Shown here piece by piece: positions 893-15,770 of a stretch of DNA of 63,111 nucleotides (its first letter is position 1; each line of letters opens with the position of its first letter). Below the pieces are notes generated by a model, which was not told where the DNA came from, did no database searches, and saw nothing but the letters and a program-made list of their open reading frames with translations. Position numbers and translations under genes: made by a program. The DNA comes from a phage. The stretch is taken from assembly GCA_033178465.1 (NCBI GenBank), contig GCA_033178465.1_4726.1; one strand, 5' to 3'.

Positions 893-3800
893 ATGGCGAC
901 ATTCTTACCTGACGATAAGCAGGATCTGGTTGACCAACTCAATGTACTAAATAAAACAAATATCCCGGCTGATGGTATCGCAGTCACTGCTGTTGGCGAT
1001 AGTCAAAAACTTGACGGTGTTGGAAATTACACAGGGACGGTTACGGTTAATAAACCAAAACGGTCATTCGCGACACTGTTTCCGTTCGGTGCGATCATGA
1101 AAAAAGAAACCGGTAACGAGGATGTTACTGGCCGCGCTGCACTCGCGTTATTGAACGAGCAGTTCCATCTGACGATTGCAGAAAGTTATTTCACAGAAGA
1201 ATCTTTAAATGCAACATACCAGTTAGGGACATGGAACAGCATCTCCGCACAAATCGCTTTAGAACCAACCAAGGATAACCCTTACTGGAAAGATACGTTG
1301 TTCATCTCAATGTATCGGTCAACGCTAGGTGCTTTGGAGGCATCTGATGCAAGCGCATCATCGAGTATTTATGTTGATTTAGGATCGGCTAGAAAAGCGT
1401 TCAATCTGAATCGTACCGGCGTATACAAGTTACCTTTACCAACAACGTCCAGTAGTGTACCGGACCGTTATGAATGGTGTCAGTTATTAGAAATTACACC
1501 ATCGGTTGTTGGCGGGCAGATTGACTGGAGCAACTACTTAACGCTGGAGCCGTTAACGCCGACGTTCCCAGTGATGGAAATCGATACAACCTATTACTTC
1601 CTGCTTTGGACATTTAACCGTAAAGATTGGTACGTGAAACAAATCACCGCATCGGAGCGTTATAACGATGTTGCTCAACTTATTGGTAAATGGGTGCTTA
1701 CAGCGTCGCCGGTTAATTTCGTTGGTTATGGTCATGCAAGATTCTTAACCCGAAACACAGGAACGTTTACCGATCCAGAAACCGATCATTACGTGTTAAA
1801 TGAAAGCGGGGTAATGGTAAACAACCGTCATTTCATTGCAGCAACACGACAAGAAGCGCAACCGGATGGTGACGCAACAACAGAAGGACAGTCGTTGTTA
1901 ATTCTGGGTGCGGGTATATTCAGTCATACAACGGATGACACCAAGCTTAAAGCGCATTATCTCACATTAGCAGAGGCATCGTTCGATGCGTATATAAAAG
2001 CGTTCTACGCAGGCCTTGAACCACCGGATACACCGACACGCTGGATCGCTAACTGGATCGTTAATGGTAAGCAACCGGTGTTGGCTCATTATCCTCTTGC
2101 AAAAGACGATTACCCAACACACGGGGGTTTCCATGACACAGCGGTTACATTCACCAGCGGTATCGGGAAAATAACACACGGTGCACCCACGTTCGGGGAA
2201 TACATGGATCTTGTTGTTCAGGTCTATGAGGGTAAACTCGGCTGGCAGAATTTGAACGCCGATGTGTTCAAAACCAATGATGAGGGGACGATTGACTGGG
2301 ATACAAAGGGTACAGTGTTCCCTATCGAGAAAGTTGCGTTACGCACAAAACGATACGTAAGTGCGGACGGGGACGATCTTGAAGCGTGTACTGACGATGA
2401 GGTAGGTACCATCGTACTCAAAGATAAATCCGTCAGCGGTTCTTATTTGGTTGCGTGGGCACCCCGCGTTCCTGTTGAATATGGCGGATACCTCATCAAA
2501 ACGAACGAGTGTCAGCATAACCGACCGATCCAGGTGCCGGTCACCAGAGACTACATGGGAAACGCGTCAGACGCTGAACAGTGGTTTTGTGAAGCAGCCT
2601 ACACCTTATATCGTTTAACGCAGCAGGAGCGTTATCAGAAAGCGTACAAGGCATCTTTGTTTACGATTGAAGAATATACCCGTATTGACGCTAACGATAA
2701 GTTCTTCCGTCAAGTAAAAGGAACCGATCGTTACGACACCGACGGTATCGCTTACACGTATACCTATCCATCGAAAGCACCGTTCACAATCACACGCGAT
2801 ACTGATGGCTGGATCGTGATTCAAGCATCTTCAGCACAAATTTACCTTGAACAGCAGGCCATTCCGTTCCGCGTCAATCGTGATTCAATTCTTCGGGTAA
2901 CCTGCGGCGGTAAAGATACAGCAGGTGTTGCAATTCCGGTTGAGATCTCATTATCGCTTTCTTTGGACAAAACCGAAGCGAAAGCCAAAACGTACAAGCT
3001 GGTATTACCTTCCAGCGCTGAACCGAAAGGATGGGATTTCAAAATAGGCTCATTGATTCCTGCTGATGCGGTTGATGAAGCTTCAACGCCAACCGGTGAT
3101 GCTGTTACAGGTTCTGTGTTGATATCGGCTGATAAAGTCGGCTGGAAAGACGATGTCGCCATCACAACAGAATTCAGCGAAGCGGTGGAAGATTCCTGGG
3201 ATGGGTTGTTCTTAAAAGCGCAGCTTACTGCGGCAGGCGGGCAATTTGAATTCAACCCAACCGCAAAACAGATCGTAAGACAGGTCAGTTATTTCGCGTC
3301 GATTGACTACAACGTTCGTGTAGAAGATGCAAATGGTTGGCGATGGTGGTATATGCTACCGGCCACCACAGCAAGAAATACATTGACGCTTTCGGCGAAC
3401 GGATGGACGCTTTCAGGGTATCAACCGGGCCACGCTGATACTGACCCTAGACCTTCTGCACCTGTGTGGGGCGATGGCTCAACTGAAATTCTGTTCTTGC
3501 CTGACGACAGCGATATCGCTGAAGGGGTATTTAAGCTCTACGCCATCAACAATCCGCCGTCAACTTACACCACGGATGACGGATACACCATGTTGTTTAC
3601 GTTAAAAGCAATCTTTGAGGCAGAGGGCACATTGCGTGTTGGCGATTGCACGATTGTCAACCAACGTCTGGATCCATTGCCTTATACTCCGGGTATTATT
3701 CCGTTCTCTAACAACTATATCCCTAACGCACCGACGTTCGACAGCTGGCGTGGTCAGCCTTATCCCGGCTACCAACATCCATGGGTCTTCCTGGATATGG

Positions 3801-4695: not shown

Positions 4696-5223
4696 ATGCG
4701 TTCACTTTACCCGCCATGGAAAGACGAACTGATTACGTTGATAAACCAACGTAACGGTAGCGTGTTCAGCAGCTCCGATCTTACATTAACCTTGGATGGG
4801 AGTTCTGGTGCTAACAGGGCAAAAGTGATCGTCACAGCAAATGAAGGAACAAGGTGGTGTGGTGAAAGTTTTATCACTTACACACGACGTGATATCGCGA
4901 AAGCGTTTCTAGGGATACCGATGAAAATCGTTTTGGAGTCGGTTGAAACAACAACTATAAGAGCGGTTATTCAAGCTATTTCAGATCAGTACGGATTCAT
5001 CTTTGAAACCGATGCTGATTTTGATTCAGCTATCCTTGCTACTGTCATTGATTTTCGTGACGACACATCCAAGAAGATCTCGATTCCCATCGCGAATACC
5101 TCCATGGTTTGGCGTGGGCAATTGGATCTTATCGTGACAAACCAGCGTGATACATCACCAGCGTATCTTTGCGCCGGTGCGGCAACTGTCATCGGTGATG
5201 TCATCACTATTTACCCGGGATAA
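4696..5223 (+). CDS. small protein consisting of the shared ~150-aa N-terminal module (putative tail-fibre adaptor/chaperone)
   Basis: 175-aa ORF; GGAGGAGGG RBS; paralogous to 49-879 and N-term of 11277-13889 (e.g. RRDIAKAFLGIPMKIV vs KRDLAKAFLGIPVKII); stop 6 nt before fibre gene start. Confidence 0.65.
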   Translation: MRSLYPPWKDELITLINQRNGSVFSSSDLTLTLDGSSGANRAKVIVTANEGTRWCGESFITYTRRDIAKAFLGIPMKIVLESVETTTIRAVIQAISDQYGFIFETDADFDSAILATVIDFRDDTSKKISIPIANTSMVWRGQLDLIVTNQRDTSPAYLCAGAATVIGDVITIYPG

Positions 5224-5229
5224 AACGCC

Positions 5230-8200
5230 ATGAGTACAACTTATAAAACGGTCATTACCGATAAAGGCGCTGAACGTATTGCCGCAGCGCTACTTCCTGA
5301 CGGTGAGAAACTAAGAATCACACATTTTGCTGTTGGTGACGGAAACGGCTCTACACCAACCCCGACCGCCAGCCAAACAGCGCTCGTACACGAAGTTTAT
5401 CGTGGGGGAGTTTCTAACATCCACATTGATGTTGACGACACAACTCGGATTGTTGTTGAAGGCATTATTCCCACCAGTCAAGGTGGGTTCTGGGTGCGTG
5501 AGATCGGTCTGTACGACGATCAGGGTGAACTTGTCGTTGTCGGCAATGCGCCAGAAGGGTACAAACCACTGCCTTCCGAAGGGGCAGGACGTGTGTTAAA
5601 TTGTCAGGTATTTGTTGTCGTAAGCAATACCGATGCGATCGAATTGAAGGTTGTTAGTGACGCATTCTTACCAGACGCGACCACCGAGAAACGGGGATTA
5701 ACGATCCTTAGCAGCGAAACAAATAGTGACGACGAAACCAAAGCCGCAACATCAAAAGCAGTTAAAGCTGTGATGGATGTTGCGAAAGGAAAGTACACGG
5801 CTGTGGACGCTAGTACCACTCGTAAAGGGTTGGTTCAGTTAACCTCGGCGACGAACAGTGATAGTGAAGTACTCGCACTATCCGCGAAAGCCGGGAAAGT
5901 CCTAGCAACACAAATTAGCGCTAAAGCGGATCTTTCTAGTCCGGCATTTACCGATAAGCCGACAACACCAACCGCAGCCGAAGGCGATAAAAGTCAGCAG
6001 ATTGCGAATACCGAATTTGTGATGCGTGCTATCGCATCGCTGGTCGACTCGTCTCCAGAAGCGCTAAATACGCTTAATGAGCTGGCTCAAGCTTTAGGGA
6101 ACGATCCTAATTTCGCAACGACAGTAACCAATGCGTTGGCAGGTAAACAGCCGTTGAACGCGTTGCTGACAGCGTGGTCTAACCTAACAACAGATGCGAA
6201 TAAACTCCCTTATTTTACTGGACGGAACCAAATCGGACTAACTAACGTAACGTCAATAGGTCTGAATCTGCTAAGCAAAGGAAGCGTTGATGCGGTCTTA
6301 CTGTATCTTGGATTGACAGAAACCATAAAGGCAGCTAAGACAGCATTGCAGGCTGGGAATAACGGTAGTGATATCGTAGATAAAACCGCGTTTGCTAAAA
6401 CGATCGGGTTATCGCCAGAGACGTACCTGAAATATAACGGCGATATGGCGATAGATGCGGACCTTAATACCTTCGGTCCAGTCGAAGCGTCTATGGGTAT
6501 TTGGTCGAAAGGCACATCTACAAACGCAACGTTTGCGAAGAACTTCCCGGAAGAAAACGCAGTCGGTTATTTAGAAGTTTTTAGAGCGGGTAACTACGGC
6601 GGAAGTCAACGTTTCACTGTACGTAACGGTAACATCTATACACGTCATCTTACTGCTTCATGGAATGGGACAAACGGTCCTTGGTCAGAATGGCGTAATG
6701 TTGCCGGTTCCGCCAGAACGTTGAACGAACAAAATAATCTGAATGACTTAGGCGGTGAACCCGCATTGGGTGTTTGGAGAAACAGTACAAGTACGTTAGC
6801 AACAGCTGCGCTGAATTATCCTGAGGAAGGTTCCTTTGCCCAGGGTGTATTAGAGGTCCTCAAAGGTGGTAACTACAGTTACACACAACGCTACACTACT
6901 CGTAGAGGTAATGTGTACGTTCGTTGTCTACAAGCCACGTGGGATGCTTCAAACCCGCAATGGGAGGAATGGCGCTGCGTCGGCTGTCAATCTGTCAGCG
7001 CATATTTCGAAGGCGATCTCGACACGTTAACTTCACCTAACCGTTATAGCATTACCGACAAAGCGACAAACGTTCCTTTAATCGACGGCACTAAAATTAT
7101 CGGTATCTTGGACGTCAGTCGTCGTTTTGATAACATTAGCATCGAACAAAAATTCACCTCGTTTGGTTCTGGTAGTAAAACCACAGGTCGCGTTTTCACT
7201 CGTGTATTCTCCGGCCAATCGAACGGTAAATGGAGTGACTGGCGAGAGGTTTTCACATCGTATTCACTTCCGTTGGTTTTGGGTATCGGTGGGGCCGCAG
7301 CTAAAGTCGATTCGTTGGACTGGCAGACCTACGACTTTATTCCCGGCCAGATGTTAACGACGCCTTTGAACACCATGCAGAACATTCCGTCCGATATGGA
7401 TTGGGGTGTGATCGACGGTAACCTAGTCAACATCCTTGTCGGGCCGTCTGATGACACCGGTACCGGTCGGAGTATGTTGGTTTGGCGTAGCACGGTGTCT
7501 ACCGCGAATTATCGGTTCTTTGCTGTTCGTATCGCTGGCACCGCCGGTAATCGTACGATTACGACGCGTCAGATGCCTGTGCTTAACGCTGCTCATACCT
7601 GGGCAGAAAAACAGACATTCAATAAAGGCTTAGCTGGTGATTTAACGGGTAATGCCACTACAGCAACCAAGCTACAAACCGCCCGTAAAATCGGCGGTGT
7701 CGCGTTCGATGGCACAGCTGATATCGCGTTACCTGGCGTCAATGCAGCTGGTAATCAGAATACAACCGGTAACGCAGCAACCGCCACGAAATTGAAAACC
7801 GCTGTTACGATCGGTGGTGTGAGTTTCGATGGTTCGGCCAGTATCAGTCTACCGGGTGTTAACGCAGCGGGAAATCAAAGCACCAGCGGAAACGCAGGAA
7901 GCGCAACCAAACTTCAGACCGCGAGAACCATCGGGGGTGTTTCTTTTGATGGTACTGCGAACATTGATTTACCAGGCGTAAATAAAGCAGGTACGCAAAG
8001 CACATCAGGGAACGCTGCAACAGCGACAAAACTCCAGACAGCCAGAAAGATCAACGGTGTTGCTTTTGATGGTACGAAAGATATCAGCTTCACGATTAGC
8101 GCGATCGCATCACGAGGTCGTGTAACCGCATTAGCGAATGCTGTTCAAGGTACCAGTACCGGTGTCCAGATGTACGAAGCGTACAACAACGGATACCCAA

Positions 8201-9198
8201 CAGCGTACGGTAACGTTATGCATCTTAAAGGGGCCAGTGCCAGCGGTGAAGGTGAGATCCTTATTGGATGGTCTGGGACATCAGGGGCGCACGCGCCAGC
8301 GTATCTTCGTTCTCGTCGGGATGCGGCGGATGCGAACTGGTCGGAATGGGCACAGATCTACACCTCGAAAGATAGTATCCCTGGTGTGAACGCAACCGGA
8401 AACCAGAACACGACGGGTAACGCCGCTTCAGCGACAAGGCTTCAAACGGCAAGAACGATAGGTGGGGTATCATTCAACGGTACAGCAAACATCAACTTAC
8501 CTGGTGTTAATACCACAGGTAACCAAGATACCACAGGAAATGCGGCGACAGCGACCAAATTAAAGACAGCCCGGACAATAGGCGGAGTGTCTTTTGACGG
8601 CAGCGCTAATATTAACCTACCTGGCGTTAACACCGCTGGTAATCAGAATACTTCAGGAAACGCTGCAACAGCAACGAAGTTGCGGACTGCGCGTACAATC
8701 AACGGGAAAGCGTTCGATGGTTCGGCGAATATCACGTTAACTGCGGCGGATTTGTCTACGTATACGAAGTCAGAAATCGATACGAAATTAGGATATAAAG
8801 CATCCAGTAGTGATATCCCTAACATGGCGATTAAAACATCCACGCTTTCATCTGGTAGTATGAACATGTCGTTTAGTGACTTCATCAACTATCTGAAAGG
8901 TGAAGGCGCATTCAGGAAACGTTATTGGATCGGATTTGGTGATATGATGGGCGCGAACGCTGGGAGTACAGGAACAATCACCGGGTTCGGTGCTCTCCAG
9001 CTCGCTGGTACGATCATTGAAGTATTCAACTTCCCTAACGGGATGGATTATACGATACGTATTACTACGCAACATAAAGCAGATTATAGCGGTTTGACAA
9101 ATATGATTGTAGTGTATCATTATCGGAGCGCATTGTCGCCTGCCGGTCAATGGTTGAAGTTCGCTGGTGCGACAGGAGCGACAAACGAAGGGTATTAA
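5230..9198 (+). CDS. tail fibre protein (lambda Stf / P2 gpH-type N-terminal domain plus tandem fibre repeats)
   Basis: 1322-aa ORF; N-terminus (…ITHFAVGDGNG…ASQTALVHEVYRG…VEGIIP…GGFWVREIGLYDDQGELVVVGN.PE.YKP) matches the conserved N-terminal domain of P2 gpH/lambda Stf-like fibres from memory; two blocks of ~40-aa repeats (GNxxTATKLxTARxIGGVxFDGxAxIxLPGVN). Confidence 0.85.
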   Translation: MSTTYKTVITDKGAERIAAALLPDGEKLRITHFAVGDGNGSTPTPTASQTALVHEVYRGGVSNIHIDVDDTTRIVVEGIIPTSQGGFWVREIGLYDDQGELVVVGNAPEGYKPLPSEGAGRVLNCQVFVVVSNTDAIELKVVSDAFLPDATTEKRGLTILSSETNSDDETKAATSKAVKAVMDVAKGKYTAVDASTTRKGLVQLTSATNSDSEVLALSAKAGKVLATQISAKADLSSPAFTDKPTTPTAAEGDKSQQIANTEFVMRAIASLVDSSPEALNTLNELAQALGNDPNFATTVTNALAGKQPLNALLTAWSNLTTDANKLPYFTGRNQIGLTNVTSIGLNLLSKGSVDAVLLYLGLTETIKAAKTALQAGNNGSDIVDKTAFAKTIGLSPETYLKYNGDMAIDADLNTFGPVEASMGIWSKGTSTNATFAKNFPEENAVGYLEVFRAGNYGGSQRFTVRNGNIYTRHLTASWNGTNGPWSEWRNVAGSARTLNEQNNLNDLGGEPALGVWRNSTSTLATAALNYPEEGSFAQGVLEVLKGGNYSYTQRYTTRRGNVYVRCLQATWDASNPQWEEWRCVGCQSVSAYFEGDLDTLTSPNRYSITDKATNVPLIDGTKIIGILDVSRRFDNISIEQKFTSFGSGSKTTGRVFTRVFSGQSNGKWSDWREVFTSYSLPLVLGIGGAAAKVDSLDWQTYDFIPGQMLTTPLNTMQNIPSDMDWGVIDGNLVNILVGPSDDTGTGRSMLVWRSTVSTANYRFFAVRIAGTAGNRTITTRQMPVLNAAHTWAEKQTFNKGLAGDLTGNATTATKLQTARKIGGVAFDGTADIALPGVNAAGNQNTTGNAATATKLKTAVTIGGVSFDGSASISLPGVNAAGNQSTSGNAGSATKLQTARTIGGVSFDGTANIDLPGVNKAGTQSTSGNAATATKLQTARKINGVAFDGTKDISFTISAIASRGRVTALANAVQGTSTGVQMYEAYNNGYPTAYGNVMHLKGASASGEGEILIGWSGTSGAHAPAYLRSRRDAADANWSEWAQIYTSKDSIPGVNATGNQNTTGNAASATRLQTARTIGGVSFNGTANINLPGVNTTGNQDTTGNAATATKLKTARTIGGVSFDGSANINLPGVNTAGNQNTSGNAATATKLRTARTINGKAFDGSANITLTAADLSTYTKSEIDTKLGYKASSSDIPNMAIKTSTLSSGSMNMSFSDFINYLKGEGAFRKRYWIGFGDMMGANAGSTGTITGFGALQLAGTIIEVFNFPNGMDYTIRITTQHKADYSGLTNMIVVYHYRSALSPAGQWLKFAGATGATNEGY
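7648..8100 (+). repeat. tandem ~120-bp (40-aa) tail-fibre repeats, ~4 copies, inside fibre gene
   Basis: Protein repeats GNATTATKLQTARKIGGVAFDGTADIALPGVNAAGNQNTT / GNAATATKLKTAVTIGGVSFDGSASISLPGVNAAGNQSTS / … read directly from translation. Confidence 0.8.
8416..8740 (+). repeat. second block of ~3 tandem 40-aa tail-fibre repeats inside fibre gene
   Basis: GNAASATRLQTARTIGGVSFNGTANINLPGVNTTGNQDTT / GNAATATKLKTARTIGGVSFDGSANINLPGVNTAGNQNTS / GNAATATKLRTARTINGKAFDGSANITL. Confidence 0.8.
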
Positions 9199-9252
9199 TA
9201 TCTTGCGATTATCCTTATGGAAGTCACTTCCGTTAACACACAAGGAAATCTA

Positions 9253-9759
9253 ATGATGAAAAAACTCTGCGCGATCGTTCTTGGTATGTTGATGGTGCTT
9301 TCTCTGGGTGGGTGCGCTACGCTGGAAGGCTTACCGAACCTGGATAAAGACCTGACACAACTGGTGGGGTTAAAACCTGTTGAGAAGAACAGCAATCTCG
9401 CTGTGTATTCCTGCTGGGGAGCAACCCAGGAATTCGAACATTGGAAACCGAAGTTTTCAACCACGGAAATCTGGAACGATAAGGTTCTGGTTGTGGATGA
9501 AGGTAGTCAGTTTACCGTCGACTCTCCGGTAACCGTTTTCGAGTCCACACAGTTGTACACCACGGTGAAAGACTACGTTGATCTGGGGTTCAATACCGCA
9601 ACCAGCGAACGCTTCTACCGTATGAATAAACCAACCCTGTCTTACGCAAGTTCAACCCTGAACTCGAACGGTGATGGTGTTGGTATGGTCTTCTTCAATT
9701 GTTCTACCGATCGTGCGCTGATCGCCGACCCGGATTCCGTTGAGGTTATCAGTAAGTAA
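9253..9759 (+). CDS. putative lipoprotein (signal peptide with lipobox LGGC); candidate receptor-masking/superinfection-exclusion protein
   Basis: ATG at 9253 with AAGGA RBS; N-terminus MMKKLCAIVLGMLMVLSLGGC = basic n-region, hydrophobic core, Cys after LGG; located directly downstream of tail fibre gene. Confidence 0.65.
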   Translation: MMKKLCAIVLGMLMVLSLGGCATLEGLPNLDKDLTQLVGLKPVEKNSNLAVYSCWGATQEFEHWKPKFSTTEIWNDKVLVVDEGSQFTVDSPVTVFESTQLYTTVKDYVDLGFNTATSERFYRMNKPTLSYASSTLNSNGDGVGMVFFNCSTDRALIADPDSVEVISK

Positions 9760-9768
9760 TTAAGTATG

Positions 9769-9796
9769 CTCCTCCAACCCGTAAGGGAAGGAGGAG
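9769..9796 (+). terminator. conserved palindromic hairpin element (family A), followed by CTATGG
   Basis: CTCCTCCAACCC-GTAA-GGGAAGGAGGAG between lipoprotein gene and 9853 gene. Confidence 0.55.
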
Positions 9797-9852
9797 CTGC
9801 TATGGCGTCATCGTATGAAATTTCCTTTTTGAGAATAGAAACGAGGTAGAAA

Positions 9853-10509
9853 ATGGCAATAGCGCGAACTATAGGGTTCACGTCTAGAAGGCACGCTGAC
9901 GGCAAATTAGGGTGGCGTGATCCCGGCTGGAGAGTGGCCTATAATAACAGCATTGTCGCCCATCTTTTTGACTTGCGTTCTTTTGCGCGAGAAGTCGTCG
10001 CTAGACACCCAAACGCGTACTTAGAATATGTCTCTGGGCATGGCGATGCTGAAGAAATTCAACACGGACAATGGAATAACGGGGTATACGTACCAAATAT
10101 ACCTCTCCAAGGATGGAGTGGCGATGTCGCCGCGTACGACTATAAACTATTCTGGAACGCGTCAGCTAACGGCTCAATGGGTAATATTGACTGTGATAGC
10201 CGTAAGCATACATGGAAACCATGGTCGGCGGGTAATCTCTCGGCACCTATTAGAATGTCCGACTTACAATCACATCCGTTCTTTGTTATTATTGAATTTA
10301 AGTATCGATCAACAACGCACTACGTTAAGCTTGGTTCGTTCCAGATAGAATCGTTCAATATATACGAAATGGTACCAGGTTTTCCGGGATGGGTAGGTAA
10401 CGTGATGAGTCAAAACGGTAGGGCAGTGCCTGGCTGGGCTTCGCAGCTTGTTTCAGGGAACTGGTTGACGTCGTTTGTTGGTGGTAAGCGATATCTAAAT
10501 TCAATTTAA
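9853..10509 (+). CDS. hypothetical protein, paralogue of 10612-11253 (putative fibre accessory protein)
   Basis: 218-aa ORF; C-terminal 45 aa nearly identical to neighbour (PGFPGWVGNVMSQNGRAVPGWASQLVSGNWLTSFVGGKRY) while N-termini diverge. Confidence 0.7.
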   Translation: MAIARTIGFTSRRHADGKLGWRDPGWRVAYNNSIVAHLFDLRSFAREVVARHPNAYLEYVSGHGDAEEIQHGQWNNGVYVPNIPLQGWSGDVAAYDYKLFWNASANGSMGNIDCDSRKHTWKPWSAGNLSAPIRMSDLQSHPFFVIIEFKYRSTTHYVKLGSFQIESFNIYEMVPGFPGWVGNVMSQNGRAVPGWASQLVSGNWLTSFVGGKRYLNSI

Positions 10510-10611
10510 GAGAAGCTACTGTTTTATCAGTGGGTGTTTATGTATGTATTACCTGACGACAACACGCATCCGATATCCGCCACCTCAACCACCAACGTAT
10601 AGGACAACACC

Positions 10612-11253
10612 ATGGCTATAAGCACAGATAAAACACCGAATAGCGGCGCACGCTTACAAGATGGTAACGCATGGCACGATAACACCGACGCTTACTACAA
10701 CACCATGATCTGCTGGACGTTCGACGTTCGTGATATTGCGACACAAGTCCAGAACAATTATCCTGGTACCAAATACCTGGAATCGATAAACGGATATGTG
10801 AACGCAAAAGAAAAGAAACACGGACAAGGTACCAACCCTGTTATCATTCCGAATATTCCACCACAGCAATTTACCTCACTTAAGAACATGAGTCCGTCGC
10901 TATGGTGGAACGCGGGCGGACGCGGTAGCAACGGTAACGTTAACTGTGACTCGCGCAGTCATACCTGGCAGCCGTGGAACGCGAATGCGAACTGGTCAGC
11001 CGTCCCTGTGACCGAATTGTTATCGTCTCCTTTACCCGTTGCGTTTGTCTTTAAAGCGGTTTCTGGTAAACATAACGTTGCGGTATGGAACTGTCATCTC
11101 TACAATTTAACTTTCTATTACATCCGTCCCGGATTCCCTGGTTGGTGTGGTAACATCATGAGCCAGAATGGTAGAGCCGTTCCAGGCTGGGTATCACAAC
11201 TCGTCAGCGGGAACTGGTTAACTTCCTTCGTGGGCGGTAAGCAGTACATCTAA
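10612..11253 (+). CDS. hypothetical protein, paralogue of 9853-10509 (putative fibre accessory protein)
   Basis: 213-aa ORF; C-terminus PGFPGWCGNIMSQNGRAVPGWVSQLVSGNWLTSFVGGKQY; shared central motif N.DCDSR.HTW.PW. Confidence 0.7.
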   Translation: MAISTDKTPNSGARLQDGNAWHDNTDAYYNTMICWTFDVRDIATQVQNNYPGTKYLESINGYVNAKEKKHGQGTNPVIIPNIPPQQFTSLKNMSPSLWWNAGGRGSNGNVNCDSRSHTWQPWNANANWSAVPVTELLSSPLPVAFVFKAVSGKHNVAVWNCHLYNLTFYYIRPGFPGWCGNIMSQNGRAVPGWVSQLVSGNWLTSFVGGKQYI

Positions 11254-11276: not shown

Positions 11277-13889
11277 ATGAAGTTACATGAAACCGCGCAA
11301 AATGAAATACTAAGATTGGTCAACGAGAAAAACGGACTTTCTCTTACTTCCGACGATGTTGTATTTGCACGTGTTCTATCGGCACCCGAAACAACCTCCA
11401 TTCTTTTTAAAGGGAAAGATGGAAGCCGATACTACAAATCCGTATTCGTCTCGTTGGTTAAACGAGACCTCGCTAAAGCGTTCTTGGGAATACCTGTCAA
11501 GATTATCATTGAAGAAGATACCCAGTTACGTGAAATCATGCAAGCGGTCGCTGACCGTTACGGTATCGCCTTTGACCTCGCAACCGACTTCCTACAAGGA
11601 CAATTAAATAAAACGACAACAACGTCTACCACAGGCCGACAATCCGTTAAAGTAACAGCGGATGAGGGAAGTTTGGTTTGGGCAGGCGATCTTGTACTAA
11701 CTGTTGAAAACCGTAAATACAACCTGTTGTCGCTTATTCAGCATCTTGACCTTACCGGACTGAAATATCTTAACGACGATAGAACGAAGGGTGATGTCGA
11801 GTTATTGATTGCTGGCATCGACCCCGATCGCTTTGTAGGTCTTGCAAACCTACAACAGGGTGAGGCCATTTACCCCGCCTTAGCCCACCGCATCGCGGAT
11901 GCGATTCGTCGAGAAAACGCACCTGAAGATATCGGTTTACCCGCGCTGCGTGGGTTATTTGAAAACGCAACAGTCACGAAGGTGGAACGTACGGACCTCG
12001 GTGATGCGTACAGTGTCCCGATTAATACGAACGACCATTATCAAGGTACTGCCGTATTCCATCTCAATAACGGCAACCCCAAAGGCGCACCAACCTACCG
12101 CTACGCAAAAGGTACGCGTAACCTCTGGCAACCGATGTATTGGATTATCAACGGTCAGTCAACAGAGAACTTCGCGGTTGTCAGTGAAGACATGGTACTT
12201 AATGCGTATATGCGATGCCATACCGCTAACGGGTTGGTCGGGATAGAATGGCGGACAACGGATACGCTGGATCACGGTTGTATTGCGTATGATCCCATGA
12301 CGTCGTTATTCGGTTTGATCTTTAAAGCGAAGATCACGTTTACTGGCGATCAGCGTAACTTTGCAGATACCGAAAACCCGCCGGTTTTAACCGTCGTACA
12401 CAAAGACGATAGCCGTCAGTATATCTCATTAACCCGATATGCGACCGACGTCTCTGAAGACGGTACAAGCGCAATCGTGACGATCGATTTCAATGACGCA
12501 ATGGCGGGGTTCTATGCTGACGAACCCATCGAACTTGAATCGGTAACGTCGTTGATGTTCAGCATGAGTTCTCGACATTATAAGGAAGATGCGACTGAAA
12601 CGACATATCTGGAAACACCGATCGATCTTGGTTTAACCCTCGAGATTCTTCCTATCGATGGGGTGTATCAGGAAATGACGGTTAATCGCCATCATTGTAC
12701 ACCACACGAACTTCGTGCGATAACCGCTTATGATGACCATTACAACATCACACCAGAGCGTGTATTTGAGAACCTGGTTTATGCGGGATATCAAGATGAA
12801 TTAGTACACTATGTCGGAATGTCGCATTTCTACGATACTGTCTGGACGCCAAGTGCGGGTAAGTTACTGGTGAACACCACGGATGTATTAAATCCACCCT
12901 GTATCGCATGGCATGAAGCTTTCGCCGCATATGCTGCAAAACACCATTTCTCTGTCACCATCAGTTTAAGTTACGAATTGATGAGTACCGCATGCCCGTT
13001 CGAGTGGGCGCAGCAGGATTGGGAAGGAAACATTGCAGCAACCGGATATACGCCACCGTCTTGGTTGTTATCTCCATGTAACCAACAGGCGATGGCGTGG
13101 TTAGGGGATGTATTAACCGCGTTTGCCGATATCATCTACCCTCATGTCCAGGACATTTGTGTGCAAGTAGGTGAACCCTGGTGGTGGATCAATACGGCGA
13201 ACAACAAACCGTGTATCTACGATTACCAAACCAAACTGGCTTTCAATAACCGATATCCCAACAAATACGCCGCAGACATCGGTGATATTAACAACCCGTT
13301 ATCCGGTGGTGACTACGATCTCTACGTTGAGTTTTGTAACGAACAGTTAGGATACAGTTGCTGGAATTTGGTTAACCGGGTAAAATCGAAATACACGCAG
13401 ATCAAAACCGGCGTTCTTCCGTTCTTACCGACGATCATGTCGAATGCGTTCACGGAGAAACTCAATCTTCCCAAAGCGTGGTATAATCCAGAGAAATTCG
13501 ACCGGTTCTATTCGGAGTGCTATGACTGGATTATTGAAACGCATGTCACCAAGGCTGAGCAAGCGATCACCATTCCGCGAGATACGCTTGGTTTCCCGGT
13601 TAGTCAGATCCACTATTACCTGGGATTTGTTCCTGGTGAAGATCTTGCACCGCTTTATGGGTTCGATGTTAAAACGCCGTATAAACGCGAACTCTGGAAA
13701 CGTATCATGGGTAACCACGCAAATAACCTGGATATGTTCGAAGGGCTCACTCAGTATATCTGGGCGTATCCGCAGTTCATCGGCGATAGCATTATTCCCG
13801 GCCAGGTTCCCGAAGAGTTTTATTTCCTAGGAAAACGTTATGATATCATTCGTACGGACATTCCTTTTGATTTTACGCCGGACGCTTAA
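11277..13889 (+). CDS. large protein with N-terminal shared adaptor module fused to a ~720-aa C-terminal domain (putative receptor-binding/enzymatic tail protein)
   Basis: 870-aa ORF; first ~150 aa paralogous to 4696-5223 and 49-879; Trp/Tyr-rich C-terminal part, no motif recognised. Confidence 0.6.
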   Translation: MKLHETAQNEILRLVNEKNGLSLTSDDVVFARVLSAPETTSILFKGKDGSRYYKSVFVSLVKRDLAKAFLGIPVKIIIEEDTQLREIMQAVADRYGIAFDLATDFLQGQLNKTTTTSTTGRQSVKVTADEGSLVWAGDLVLTVENRKYNLLSLIQHLDLTGLKYLNDDRTKGDVELLIAGIDPDRFVGLANLQQGEAIYPALAHRIADAIRRENAPEDIGLPALRGLFENATVTKVERTDLGDAYSVPINTNDHYQGTAVFHLNNGNPKGAPTYRYAKGTRNLWQPMYWIINGQSTENFAVVSEDMVLNAYMRCHTANGLVGIEWRTTDTLDHGCIAYDPMTSLFGLIFKAKITFTGDQRNFADTENPPVLTVVHKDDSRQYISLTRYATDVSEDGTSAIVTIDFNDAMAGFYADEPIELESVTSLMFSMSSRHYKEDATETTYLETPIDLGLTLEILPIDGVYQEMTVNRHHCTPHELRAITAYDDHYNITPERVFENLVYAGYQDELVHYVGMSHFYDTVWTPSAGKLLVNTTDVLNPPCIAWHEAFAAYAAKHHFSVTISLSYELMSTACPFEWAQQDWEGNIAATGYTPPSWLLSPCNQQAMAWLGDVLTAFADIIYPHVQDICVQVGEPWWWINTANNKPCIYDYQTKLAFNNRYPNKYAADIGDINNPLSGGDYDLYVEFCNEQLGYSCWNLVNRVKSKYTQIKTGVLPFLPTIMSNAFTEKLNLPKAWYNPEKFDRFYSECYDWIIETHVTKAEQAITIPRDTLGFPVSQIHYYLGFVPGEDLAPLYGFDVKTPYKRELWKRIMGNHANNLDMFEGLTQYIWAYPQFIGDSIIPGQVPEEFYFLGKRYDIIRTDIPFDFTPDA

Positions 13890-14929: not shown

Positions 14930-15439
14930 TTAGAACAAGTAGAAATGAACGTTTGGTACGGTGGCAAGATACTGTTTGATTTGTGCGCGTACCCATTGAG
15001 GCTGGATTGTTTCGGATTGTCCGTAACCGATATTACCGCAACCAGAACCGACCGGAGGAATTGCGACAATCAACGGTTCAGCTGGACGCTGGTATGAGAA
15101 GCCGTCTCTTTCGAACTGAAGCTCCAATAACCATGCTTTTAACGCCAGTAAACCGTTAACGATATACTCGCGTCGTGTTCTTTCACGCCAATCCGATTTT
15201 GATGGAAACAACACGTAGGTGAGCTGATCGTTCTCGCCATGCTGATATGACACGACTTCGCCCACCTTAAACCCATCTCGACATTGCTTACGGTACGCTT
15301 CAAGAAGACCGGGCACACGATCGGCTGCCTGCTTGGCAAGACCACGTCCCATCACACCGACGGTGTTGACAGGAATAACCCGAACGTCAGCCGGTGTTTC
15401 CCAAATATCCAATCCAATCAAACTGGTAAATCTCGCCAT
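14930..15439 (-). CDS. macrodomain protein (TARG1/DarG-like ADP-ribose-binding/hydrolase fold), candidate ADP-ribosylation-reversing anti-defence enzyme
   Basis: ATG at 15439 (track ORF starts further upstream but overlaps previous gene); motifs VIPVNTVGVMGRGLAKQ and AIPPVGSGCGNIGYG resemble TARG1 (…CRMGAGIAVLFK…MPRIGCGLDRL…) from memory; ~169 aa, typical macrodomain size. Confidence 0.6.
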   Translation of the reverse strand: MARFTSLIGLDIWETPADVRVIPVNTVGVMGRGLAKQAADRVPGLLEAYRKQCRDGFKVGEVVSYQHGENDQLTYVLFPSKSDWRERTRREYIVNGLLALKAWLLELQFERDGFSYQRPAEPLIVAIPPVGSGCGNIGYGQSETIQPQWVRAQIKQYLATVPNVHFYLF

Positions 15440-15440
15440 T

Positions 15441-15770
15441 TTATTTTCCGTTTCGTAAACGTTCTTCTTCTCGTCGTAACTTGTCCTCATCGTCGTCCAG
15501 TACCGCACTACGTTTCCGCAGTTCGTCTTGTGCGATTTTGAGTACCGTTTGCGCGTAAGGATACGGTGCTTGTAAAAACGCATCCAGCGTCATGAACTCT
15601 TTAATACCGAATCGGACATAATCCTCGATTAAGGGTTTAATCCCTAATCTGTCCCAGGGATCTTCAGCAGGGTGCTGAGCCACCCATTTCAACGGCGTCC
15701 AGTCGTTAACGCGATCGTACAAGCCAAACATGGTATCGTACGCAATACCCATTTCGATGTTCAGCTTCAT
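15441..15770 (-). CDS. hypothetical protein (operon partner of macrodomain gene)
   Basis: ATG at 15770 with AAGGTGA RBS (track start at 15800 is TTG); stop 1 nt before macrodomain start. Confidence 0.6.
   Translation of the reverse strand: MKLNIEMGIAYDTMFGLYDRVNDWTPLKWVAQHPAEDPWDRLGIKPLIEDYVRFGIKEFMTLDAFLQAPYPYAQTVLKIAQDELRKRSAVLDDDEDKLRREEERLRNGK

Follow-up and report, generated by a model that had tools for sequence, protein, structure and literature searches.

Why should a phage keep two adjacent genes whose products end in nearly the same forty residues and diverge over the rest of their length? The question is raised by positions 9853-11253 of a 63,111-nt stretch of phage DNA (NCBI GenBank assembly GCA_033178465.1, contig GCA_033178465.1_4726.1; the whole stretch is called here the window), where two open reading frames (ORFs), A and B, lie in tandem. 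The window is 94.5% identical, at only 72% coverage, to Escherichia phage vB_EcoM_Goslar, a nucleus-forming jumbo phage (237 kb) that belongs to the Chimalliviridae. We propose, with a probability of about 45%, that A and B are exchangeable accessory host-binding proteins of the fibre or peripheral-baseplate region, which would be attached through the constant module at their C-termini. The elements of the pair are the following:

9853-10509, + strand: ORF A in the ORF listing, 218 aa, the paralogue of slot 1, with a predicted jelly-roll domain and the conserved module
10375-10497, + strand: conserved module of ORF A (PGFPGWVGNVMSQNGRAVPGWASQLVSGNWLTSFVGGKRYL), with 90% amino-acid and 71% nucleotide identity to the module of ORF B
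10612-11253, + strand: ORF B in the ORF listing, 213 aa, the paralogue of slot 2, orthologue of Goslar gp087
11128-11250, + strand: conserved module of ORF B (PGFPGWCGNIMSQNGRAVPGWVSQLVSGNWLTSFVGGKQYI), of B type at 25 of 25 diagnostic nucleotide sites

A sequence-only reading of the window had taken the two genes for a tandem paralogue pair, and the comparison of their products bears this out: both ORFs lie at these coordinates, A and B are 47% identical over 188 aa (BLASTP, E 3e-60), and they are sisters in an unbootstrapped neighbour-joining tree of the N-terminal domain. They have in common the C-terminal motif PGFPGW.GN.MSQNGRAVPGW.SQLVSGNWLTSFVGGK and the central motif GN..CDSR.HTW.PW. 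The genes were aligned codon by codon and divided at PGFPGW, and their non-synonymous (dN) and synonymous (dS) divergence was calculated. In the upstream domain (171 codons) the amino-acid identity is 35%, the nucleotide identity 48% and the third-position identity 0.36, with dN 0.71 and a saturated dS; in the conserved module (40 codons) the amino-acid identity rises to 90% and the nucleotide identity to 71%, the third-position identity is 0.30 and dN 0.09, and dS is again saturated. The same codon is used at 8 of the 32 identical module residues that have degenerate codons, while random draws from the phage's own codon usage give an expectation of 11.1 +/- 2.6 (P = 0.16 for 8 or fewer). Since this sharing is close to what chance provides, the identity of the modules in the window is held at the protein level only, as had been claimed.

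The modules of the window retain no trace of shared nucleotide ancestry, and their divergence shows no significant excess. Such an excess, as might arise by selection against recombination between tandem copies, was considered as the proportion of synonymous differences (pS, by NG86) reaches 0.98, yet with a randomisation P of 0.16 this value is plain saturation and the idea was rejected. A and B are, as the codon alignment indicates, old duplicates with a module under strong purifying selection (dN 0.09 against 0.71 upstream), and the earlier view of an old duplication instead of a recent copy stands. Recent gene conversion, which would have left identical nucleotides, is not indicated in the modules of the window. 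The description of the pair as having divergent N-termini needs correction in one respect: the divergence exists, but it spans the whole domain of about 170 residues, which is still clearly homologous.

The fate of these genes among close relatives was followed in six distinct Goslar-like genomes, namely the window, Goslar (counted once with L012, the same genome), L004, L005, and L013 and L014, both of them IMG/VR contigs. Where the flanking genes were compared, in four of the genomes, they share 95-99% identity. The four fibre tips are mutually unrelated: the window has a type of its own, the tips of Goslar and L004, Gly-rich and His-rich respectively, each go with Caudo_TAP, and L005 has an S74 tip. 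Slot 1 is occupied by allele A in the window and L004 and by an unrelated allele, C, in L005. The ORF A allele is near-identical in L004/P0002; the in-frame upstream ATG that another gene caller chose for P0002 is blocked in the window by a TAG. Alleles A and C are 24% identical in the domain and 93% identical in the nucleotides of the module. Slot 2 holds B or, in L005, B', with 72% protein identity in the domain (dS ~1.9) and 99% nucleotide identity in the module. Between close alleles the jelly-roll domain has a dN/dS of ~0.05-0.1. From these alignments the jelly-roll is seen to be replaced as a cassette, with the module and the spacer as a constant frame. Cassette behaviour of this sort is typical of host-range determinants. 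Moreover, the A+B pair is found with two different fibre tips and the paralogue type does not track the tip, which argues against a tip-specific chaperone and against a tip-specific adhesin.

Either copy is, judging from these genomes, dispensable singly. In Goslar the hairpin, the ribosome-binding site and 11 initial codons of ORF A survive in the spacer between gp088 and gp087; after the deletion the sequence resumes, at a CACGC microhomology, with the final ~70 nt of the A-B spacer. The ORF A deletion junction is identical in Goslar, L013 and L014. Given this remnant and the shared junction, the two-gene state is ancestral in the lineage and the single gene of Goslar derived. The ORF B orthologue of L004 (2441-3085), with a GTG start, has a TGG-to-TGA change at codon 98 that splits it into ORFs of 97 aa and 81 aa; the premature stop could reflect a pseudogene, a read-through site or an assembly error. 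The slot-1 gene of L005 (allele C, 7224-7991, 255 aa) has lost the usual stop and runs on across the whole spacer until shortly before the next paralogue begins, and P0008 has the same extension. At the 25 diagnostic sites of the module, a short patch of slot-1 type is present in the B gene of Goslar, of L014 and of L004, different in each of the three, whereas the B modules of the window and L013 are pure B; the patch in the module of gp087 covers ~45 nt and is not found in ORF B of the window. Short-tract conversion between modules, as these patches record it, occurs in Goslar, L014 and L004 and not in the window.

The two proteins belong to a family of few members. ORFs A and B had no match in Pfam or NCBIfam (E <= 1), in PHROGs (E <= 0.01) or among PDB sequences (E <= 10). 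ORF B is 97.7% identical to Goslar gp087 (Goslar_00087), and ORF A 43% (E 4e-49). A profile search of 5.8 billion clustered proteins yielded 8 clusters and recovered the gp087-like family only, and an exhaustive HMMER scan of 1.84 billion representatives (of 15 billion proteins) gave 13 matches, 11 of them with E < 1e-10. All the family matches share the same motif, FPG(W)...QNG.A.PG(W).SQL..G.WL....GG..YL, which follows the domain of ~170 residues in both ORFs and in the 16 of 16 aligned members; F177, P178, P193, G194, G202 and L205 are invariant across these 16. The mean pairwise identity of the family is 0.57 in the module versus 0.26 in the preceding domain. There are two length classes, a short one of 213-219 aa and a long one of 316-370 aa, and in the long forms the module is followed by a further domain that varies between subgroups. 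The only annotated phages with a member are Goslar, Serratia phage PCH45 and Salmonella phage SPLA10. As far as these searches reach, the gp087-like family is small, unnamed and chimallivirus-specific, and Goslar gp087 is its only earlier-sequenced E. coli member.

The neighbourhood of the genes points to the fibre. The position after a fibre gene (5230-9198, Phage_tail_fib) and a lipoprotein-like gene (9253-9759, LSLGGC), which the sequence-only reading had emphasized, is confirmed, the latter gene separating the fibre from ORF A. In Goslar-like phages the A/B genes are located inside a series of genes on one strand that also encodes DUF7941 proteins, the fibre and the hydrolase-like protein gp086. 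In PCH45, SPLA10, the metagenomic L006 and L008 (a 237-kb contig) the family gene is placed directly downstream of a Peptidase_S74 fibre gene of 575-681 aa, and L011, with the same gene order and a sub-threshold S74 match, is a weak fifth case. The S74-linked members are ~25% identical to ORF B, and the fibre linkage is therefore old. The fibre/DUF7941 cluster has been proposed as the host-recognition apparatus (bioRxiv 10.64898/2026.04.21.720040).

The Goslar orthologue of ORF B has been detected in purified virions. In the mass spectrometry of Table S4 of the Goslar preprint, gp087 gave 4 unique peptides with 28.6% coverage, corresponding to ~19 (13-30) copies per virion; the same table gives ~43 copies for the fibre gp090, ~52 for the Caudo_TAP protein gp089, ~4.5 for gp086 and ~737 for gp088 (bioRxiv 10.64898/2026.04.21.720040). 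The proteins of ORFs A and B are probably virion-borne. The family member of PCH45 is not mentioned in the text of a transposon-sequencing (Tn-seq) and proteomics preprint on that phage (10.64898/2025.12.19.695335). In cryo-electron microscopy (cryo-EM) the peripheral baseplate and the fibres of Goslar and PhiKZ could not be modelled.

AlphaFold2 models of ORF A (mean predicted local distance difference test, pLDDT, 81.9; predicted template modelling score, pTM, 0.78; 16-sequence alignment) and of ORF B (pLDDT 81.8, pTM 0.77; 9-sequence alignment) agree with each other. Residues 1-172 form a confident β-sandwich with one helix. The module is the least confident part of the models, with a pLDDT of 44-63 (44-57 in ORF A), and the final four residues are a strand that rejoins the sandwich, the mean pLDDT of the last 10-residue block being 88. 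A segment that is best conserved and yet lowest in pLDDT is typical of segments ordered only in complex. In fold comparisons the jelly-roll is closest to carbohydrate-binding modules (CBMs), of CBM96/DNRLRE-like or CBM6/35-like kind, and can be superimposed on solved ones. The predicted fold is hence CBM-like, and from it we infer carbohydrate binding.

Taking into account that: (i) the module is conserved but modelled with low confidence; (ii) the genes are linked to the fibre; (iii) gp087 is detected by mass spectrometry, and (iv) cassettes are exchanged amid near-identical flanks, we arrive at the proposal of exchangeable, low-copy accessory host-binding proteins. In this model the jelly-roll, of ~170 residues, would be an exchangeable head contacting host glycans, and the nearly invariant Trp/Gly/Pro-rich segment of ~40 residues would be a constant plug that fits onto a conserved virion partner, or else a holder of oligomers; two copies would provide two specificities. 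Glycan binding, the attachment role of the module and the identity of the partner are what we infer in it. A wider formulation, which we regard as doubtful, would make the module a lineage-wide plug-in adaptor that docks small free-standing glycan-binding heads at a conserved place on the fibre or peripheral baseplate and acts, in addition, as a recombination handle at the DNA level for swap, conversion, duplication and loss.

Several observations weigh against the proposal of accessory host-binding proteins and keep its probability at the value given. In the long forms the module is internal, so that it is not simply a C-terminal docking tail. The fibre-region proteins of PCH45 and L008 have no BLASTP similarity to proteins of the window, and no conserved partner candidate was obtained from this comparison. 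The low pLDDT of the module is perhaps a mere effect of the shallow alignments (9-16 sequences). Foldseek against the PDB produced weak matches only, ORFs A and B match no CBM sequence profile (Pfam/NCBIfam, E <= 1), and the jelly-roll is a very common fold. The L007 member (7001-7657, 218 aa, 38% identical to ORF A) is not adjacent to a fibre gene; it adjoins thymidylate synthase and many small ORFs. No relative of L007 was found in the phage collection by megablast of the whole locus or by tblastn of one neighbouring 484-aa protein, and a weak DUF7941 match alone suggests that it is a chimallivirus. In the virion data thymidylate synthase appears at ~20 copies in the same Table S4, which means that the abundance level of gp087 includes carry-over, and neither the cryo-EM model nor the discussion of that preprint includes gp087 (bioRxiv 10.64898/2026.04.21.720040).

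Other functions have been weighed as well. The Trp/Gly/Asn/Gln-rich segment might itself be the working site, for one conserved ligand such as a lipopolysaccharide core sugar, peptidoglycan or the outer-membrane surface, in which case the jelly-roll would be a drifting scaffold, the paralogues would do the same job and the second copy would serve dosage or redundancy. This would agree with the three Trp and several Asn, Gln and Ser of the segment, a composition typical of sugar-binding sites, with its being the only strongly conserved part of the family, with its internal position in the long forms, so that it need not act as a terminal anchor, and with the loss of either copy, which fits redundancy. 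We consider it rather unlikely, however, because the replacement of alleles over the whole domain, between flanks that are 97-99% identical, marks diversifying host-range modules and not a neutral scaffold, because the domain is under purifying selection (the dN/dS of ~0.05-0.1 between close alleles), and because a ligand-binding loop that AlphaFold2 cannot order on its own domain would be unusual for carbohydrate-binding modules. The proteins could also be non-structural late products, acting in superinfection exclusion, in receptor masking on the debris of lysed cells or in counter-defence, their turnover being an arms race within the infected cell or at its surface and their mass-spectrometry signal carry-over. 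The genes adjoin that of the abundant lipoprotein-like protein, known non-virion proteins reach similar mass-spectrometry levels, the L007 member lies in a non-structural neighbourhood by thymidylate synthase, and no cryo-EM density is assigned. This reading is nevertheless improbable: neither protein has a signal peptide or a transmembrane segment, and so a route to the surface of the infected cell is missing; the linkage to fibre genes recurs across phages at only ~25% identity, and the genes are embedded in the same-strand run of fibre, DUF7941 and hydrolase genes.

The position of the pair had led the sequence-only reading to suggest fibre-associated accessory proteins, chaperone or tip adhesin, with two specificities. 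The accessory and fibre-linked part of this suggestion is likely, on indirect support from synteny, from gp087 in virions, from the CBM-like fold and from domain exchange among phages that are otherwise 97-99% identical; the chaperone part is not. Tail-fibre assembly chaperones would serve fibre folding or trimerisation and would either not be part of the mature virion or only accompany it. In most members the gene is downstream of fibre genes, the window is without a Caudo_TAP gene, and detection in virions is no exclusion since the Caudo_TAP protein gp089 is also found there (~52 copies). On the other hand, at E <= 1 neither Caudo_TAP nor another chaperone family matches A or B, and their predicted fold is CBM-like; Goslar and L004 possess a separate Caudo_TAP besides their family members, and the fibres of PCH45 type and of L005 have the intramolecular S74 chaperone. 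A tip-specific chaperone should, moreover, co-vary with the tip, and four unrelated tips face the same module. For these reasons a chaperone is quite improbable. The same constancy of the module in front of four different tips is hard to square with an adhesin bound to one tip.

Comparison with known systems places the pair between several of them. The protein nearest to ORF B is Goslar gp087 (HOV27_gp087 / QBO63880.1, a hypothetical protein), alike in position (gp088-gp086), module, fold and rarity of the family; Goslar differs from the window in that gp087 is its only copy, ORF A being deleted down to its first 11 codons. The nearest folds to A and B are CBMs for acidic polysaccharides, namely an alginate-binding one (7vbo) and a chondroitin-sulfate-binding DNRLRE-domain (8wab), and CBM6/32/35/36. 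Sequence identity to them is 6-9%, no Pfam profile matches, and the ligand residues could not be mapped. CBMs are normally parts of enzymes and not free-standing proteins with a conserved Trp/Gly-rich appendix. The gp38 adhesins of T2/S16-type phages are small, virion-borne tip proteins encoded just after the long-fibre gene, and they set receptor choice. They combine conserved glycine-rich segments with variable parts exchanged by recombination; their attachment domain is N-terminal and constant, their C-terminal part variable. A and B resemble gp38 as small genes of the fibre region, with the polarity reversed (variable N-terminal, constant C-terminal), and have no PHROG match to gp38 at E <= 0.01. 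Caudo_TAP proteins (PF02413; Goslar gp089) are likewise encoded by small genes downstream of the fibre, and gp089 is also found in virions, but A and B match neither PF02413 nor PF28596 (E <= 1), have another predicted fold and co-occur with Caudo_TAP in Goslar and L004. The DUF7941 proteins of the fibre cloud (Goslar gp22/23/86/91-93) are, as A and B, restricted to chimalliviruses and encoded in the same cluster. They have been proposed to bear carbohydrate-binding heads on the peripheral baseplate, with a poorly ordered conserved segment docking to a partner (bioRxiv 10.64898/2026.04.21.720040). In contrast to them, A and B have no PF25613 match, and gp087 is present at ~19 copies instead of hundreds to thousands.

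If the proposal is true, an exchangeable small protein that is CBM-like and has a constant anchor would offer a concrete host-range determinant, easy to engineer, in E. coli jumbo phages, which is of relevance to phage therapy because nucleus-forming jumbo phages evade DNA-targeting defences. If the adaptor formulation were also true, the host-range cassette would have a polarity opposite to that of classical tail fibres and gp38 adhesins. If the proteins are not virion components, what is left is a small, unannotated family with a loop of unusual conservation. Accessory receptor-binding modules of phages are known already; what is unusual here is the polarity of constant module and variable head and its documented turnover among close relatives. 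For paralogue evolution, too, the locus serves as a compact natural experiment: one genome has saturated synonymous divergence under strong protein constraint, to which the closest relatives add short-tract conversion, whole-domain replacement, deletion and nonsense inactivation.

Two intergenic elements flank ORF A:

9763-9801, + strand: strong GC-rich hairpin in the interval between the lipoprotein-like gene and ORF A, GCTCCTCC...GGAGGAGC, with inner CCC/GGG
10510-10611, + strand: A-B spacer, 102 nt, which contains, in this order, the weak hairpin of 10516-10533, the promoter-like string of 10543-10555 and the Shine-Dalgarno region for ORF B

A promoter between the two genes had been suspected from the letters. 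The string TATGTATTACCTG is indeed present at 10543-10555, but it is not conserved, since L004 and L005 have CTGTACGTACTGCC and CTGTACGTGCCGCC, respectively, at that site; the 10-mer is not enriched in the window and a sigma-70 scan found no sigma-70-like site at that place, so that the claim is not upheld. When the spacers of the window, L004, L005 and Goslar are aligned, the 3′ ~70 nt, including the Shine-Dalgarno of ORF B, are conserved in 4 of 4, and the TATGTATTAC part is specific to the window. The phiKZ-type early motif TATATTAC is not enriched either. A separate observation concerns GTATTACCTG, which with up to one mismatch occurs at 8 sites versus 2.5 expected (0 of 100 shuffles reach 8), at 3002, 10546, 13613, 17219, 28463, 39031, 41531 and 43587, mostly intragenic and on the coding strand; this excess could stem from biased codons or peptides, or from an internal signal. 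Upstream of ORF A, the 101 nt of 9755-9855 fold as RNA at -30 kcal/mol (z -3.5), and their hairpin, unchanged in Goslar and L004, may attenuate read-through out of gp088, a gene that is highly expressed.

The larger genes around the pair are:

5230-9198, + strand: long tail fibre gene, orthologue of Goslar gp090 with a different tip (Pfam Phage_tail_fib, Phage_fiber_2)
9253-9759, + strand (ORF 9217-9759, likely start 9253): lipoprotein-like gene, orthologue of Goslar gp088 and constant upstream flank, with an LSLGGC lipobox in its translation; phrog_9559
11277-13889, + strand: DUF7941 + NCTSP_N + TIM-barrel protein, orthologue of Goslar gp086 and constant downstream flank (Pfam PF25613, PF23844, PF23845)

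Up to residue ~1175 the fibre of the window has ~80% identity to Goslar gp090, with no match beyond. Neither the ORF listing nor Pfam reveals a separate Caudo_TAP gene in the window, nor an S74 domain in the fibre. The lipoprotein-like gene is 95-99% identical in four relatives. Its Goslar orthologue gp088 is among the most abundant proteins of purified virion preparations (the ~737 copies), which suggests co-purifying membrane material or an unusual virion component. The gp086 orthologue, with 97-99% identity among relatives, is described in Goslar as a filament protein of the DUF7941 kind that has carbohydrate-binding and hydrolase domains (bioRxiv 10.64898/2026.04.21.720040). DUF7941 (PF25613) is matched by it and by the neighbours 49-879 and 4696-5223. 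In the 870-aa protein of 11277-13889 DUF7941 is joined to the N-terminal and TIM-barrel domains of a family named non-contractile tail sheath protein (PF23844, PF23845), domains that occur here in a contractile-tailed jumbo phage. The - strand encodes, at 14930-15583 and just past the downstream end of the structural cluster, a Macro-domain protein (PF01661), as gp083 does in Goslar.

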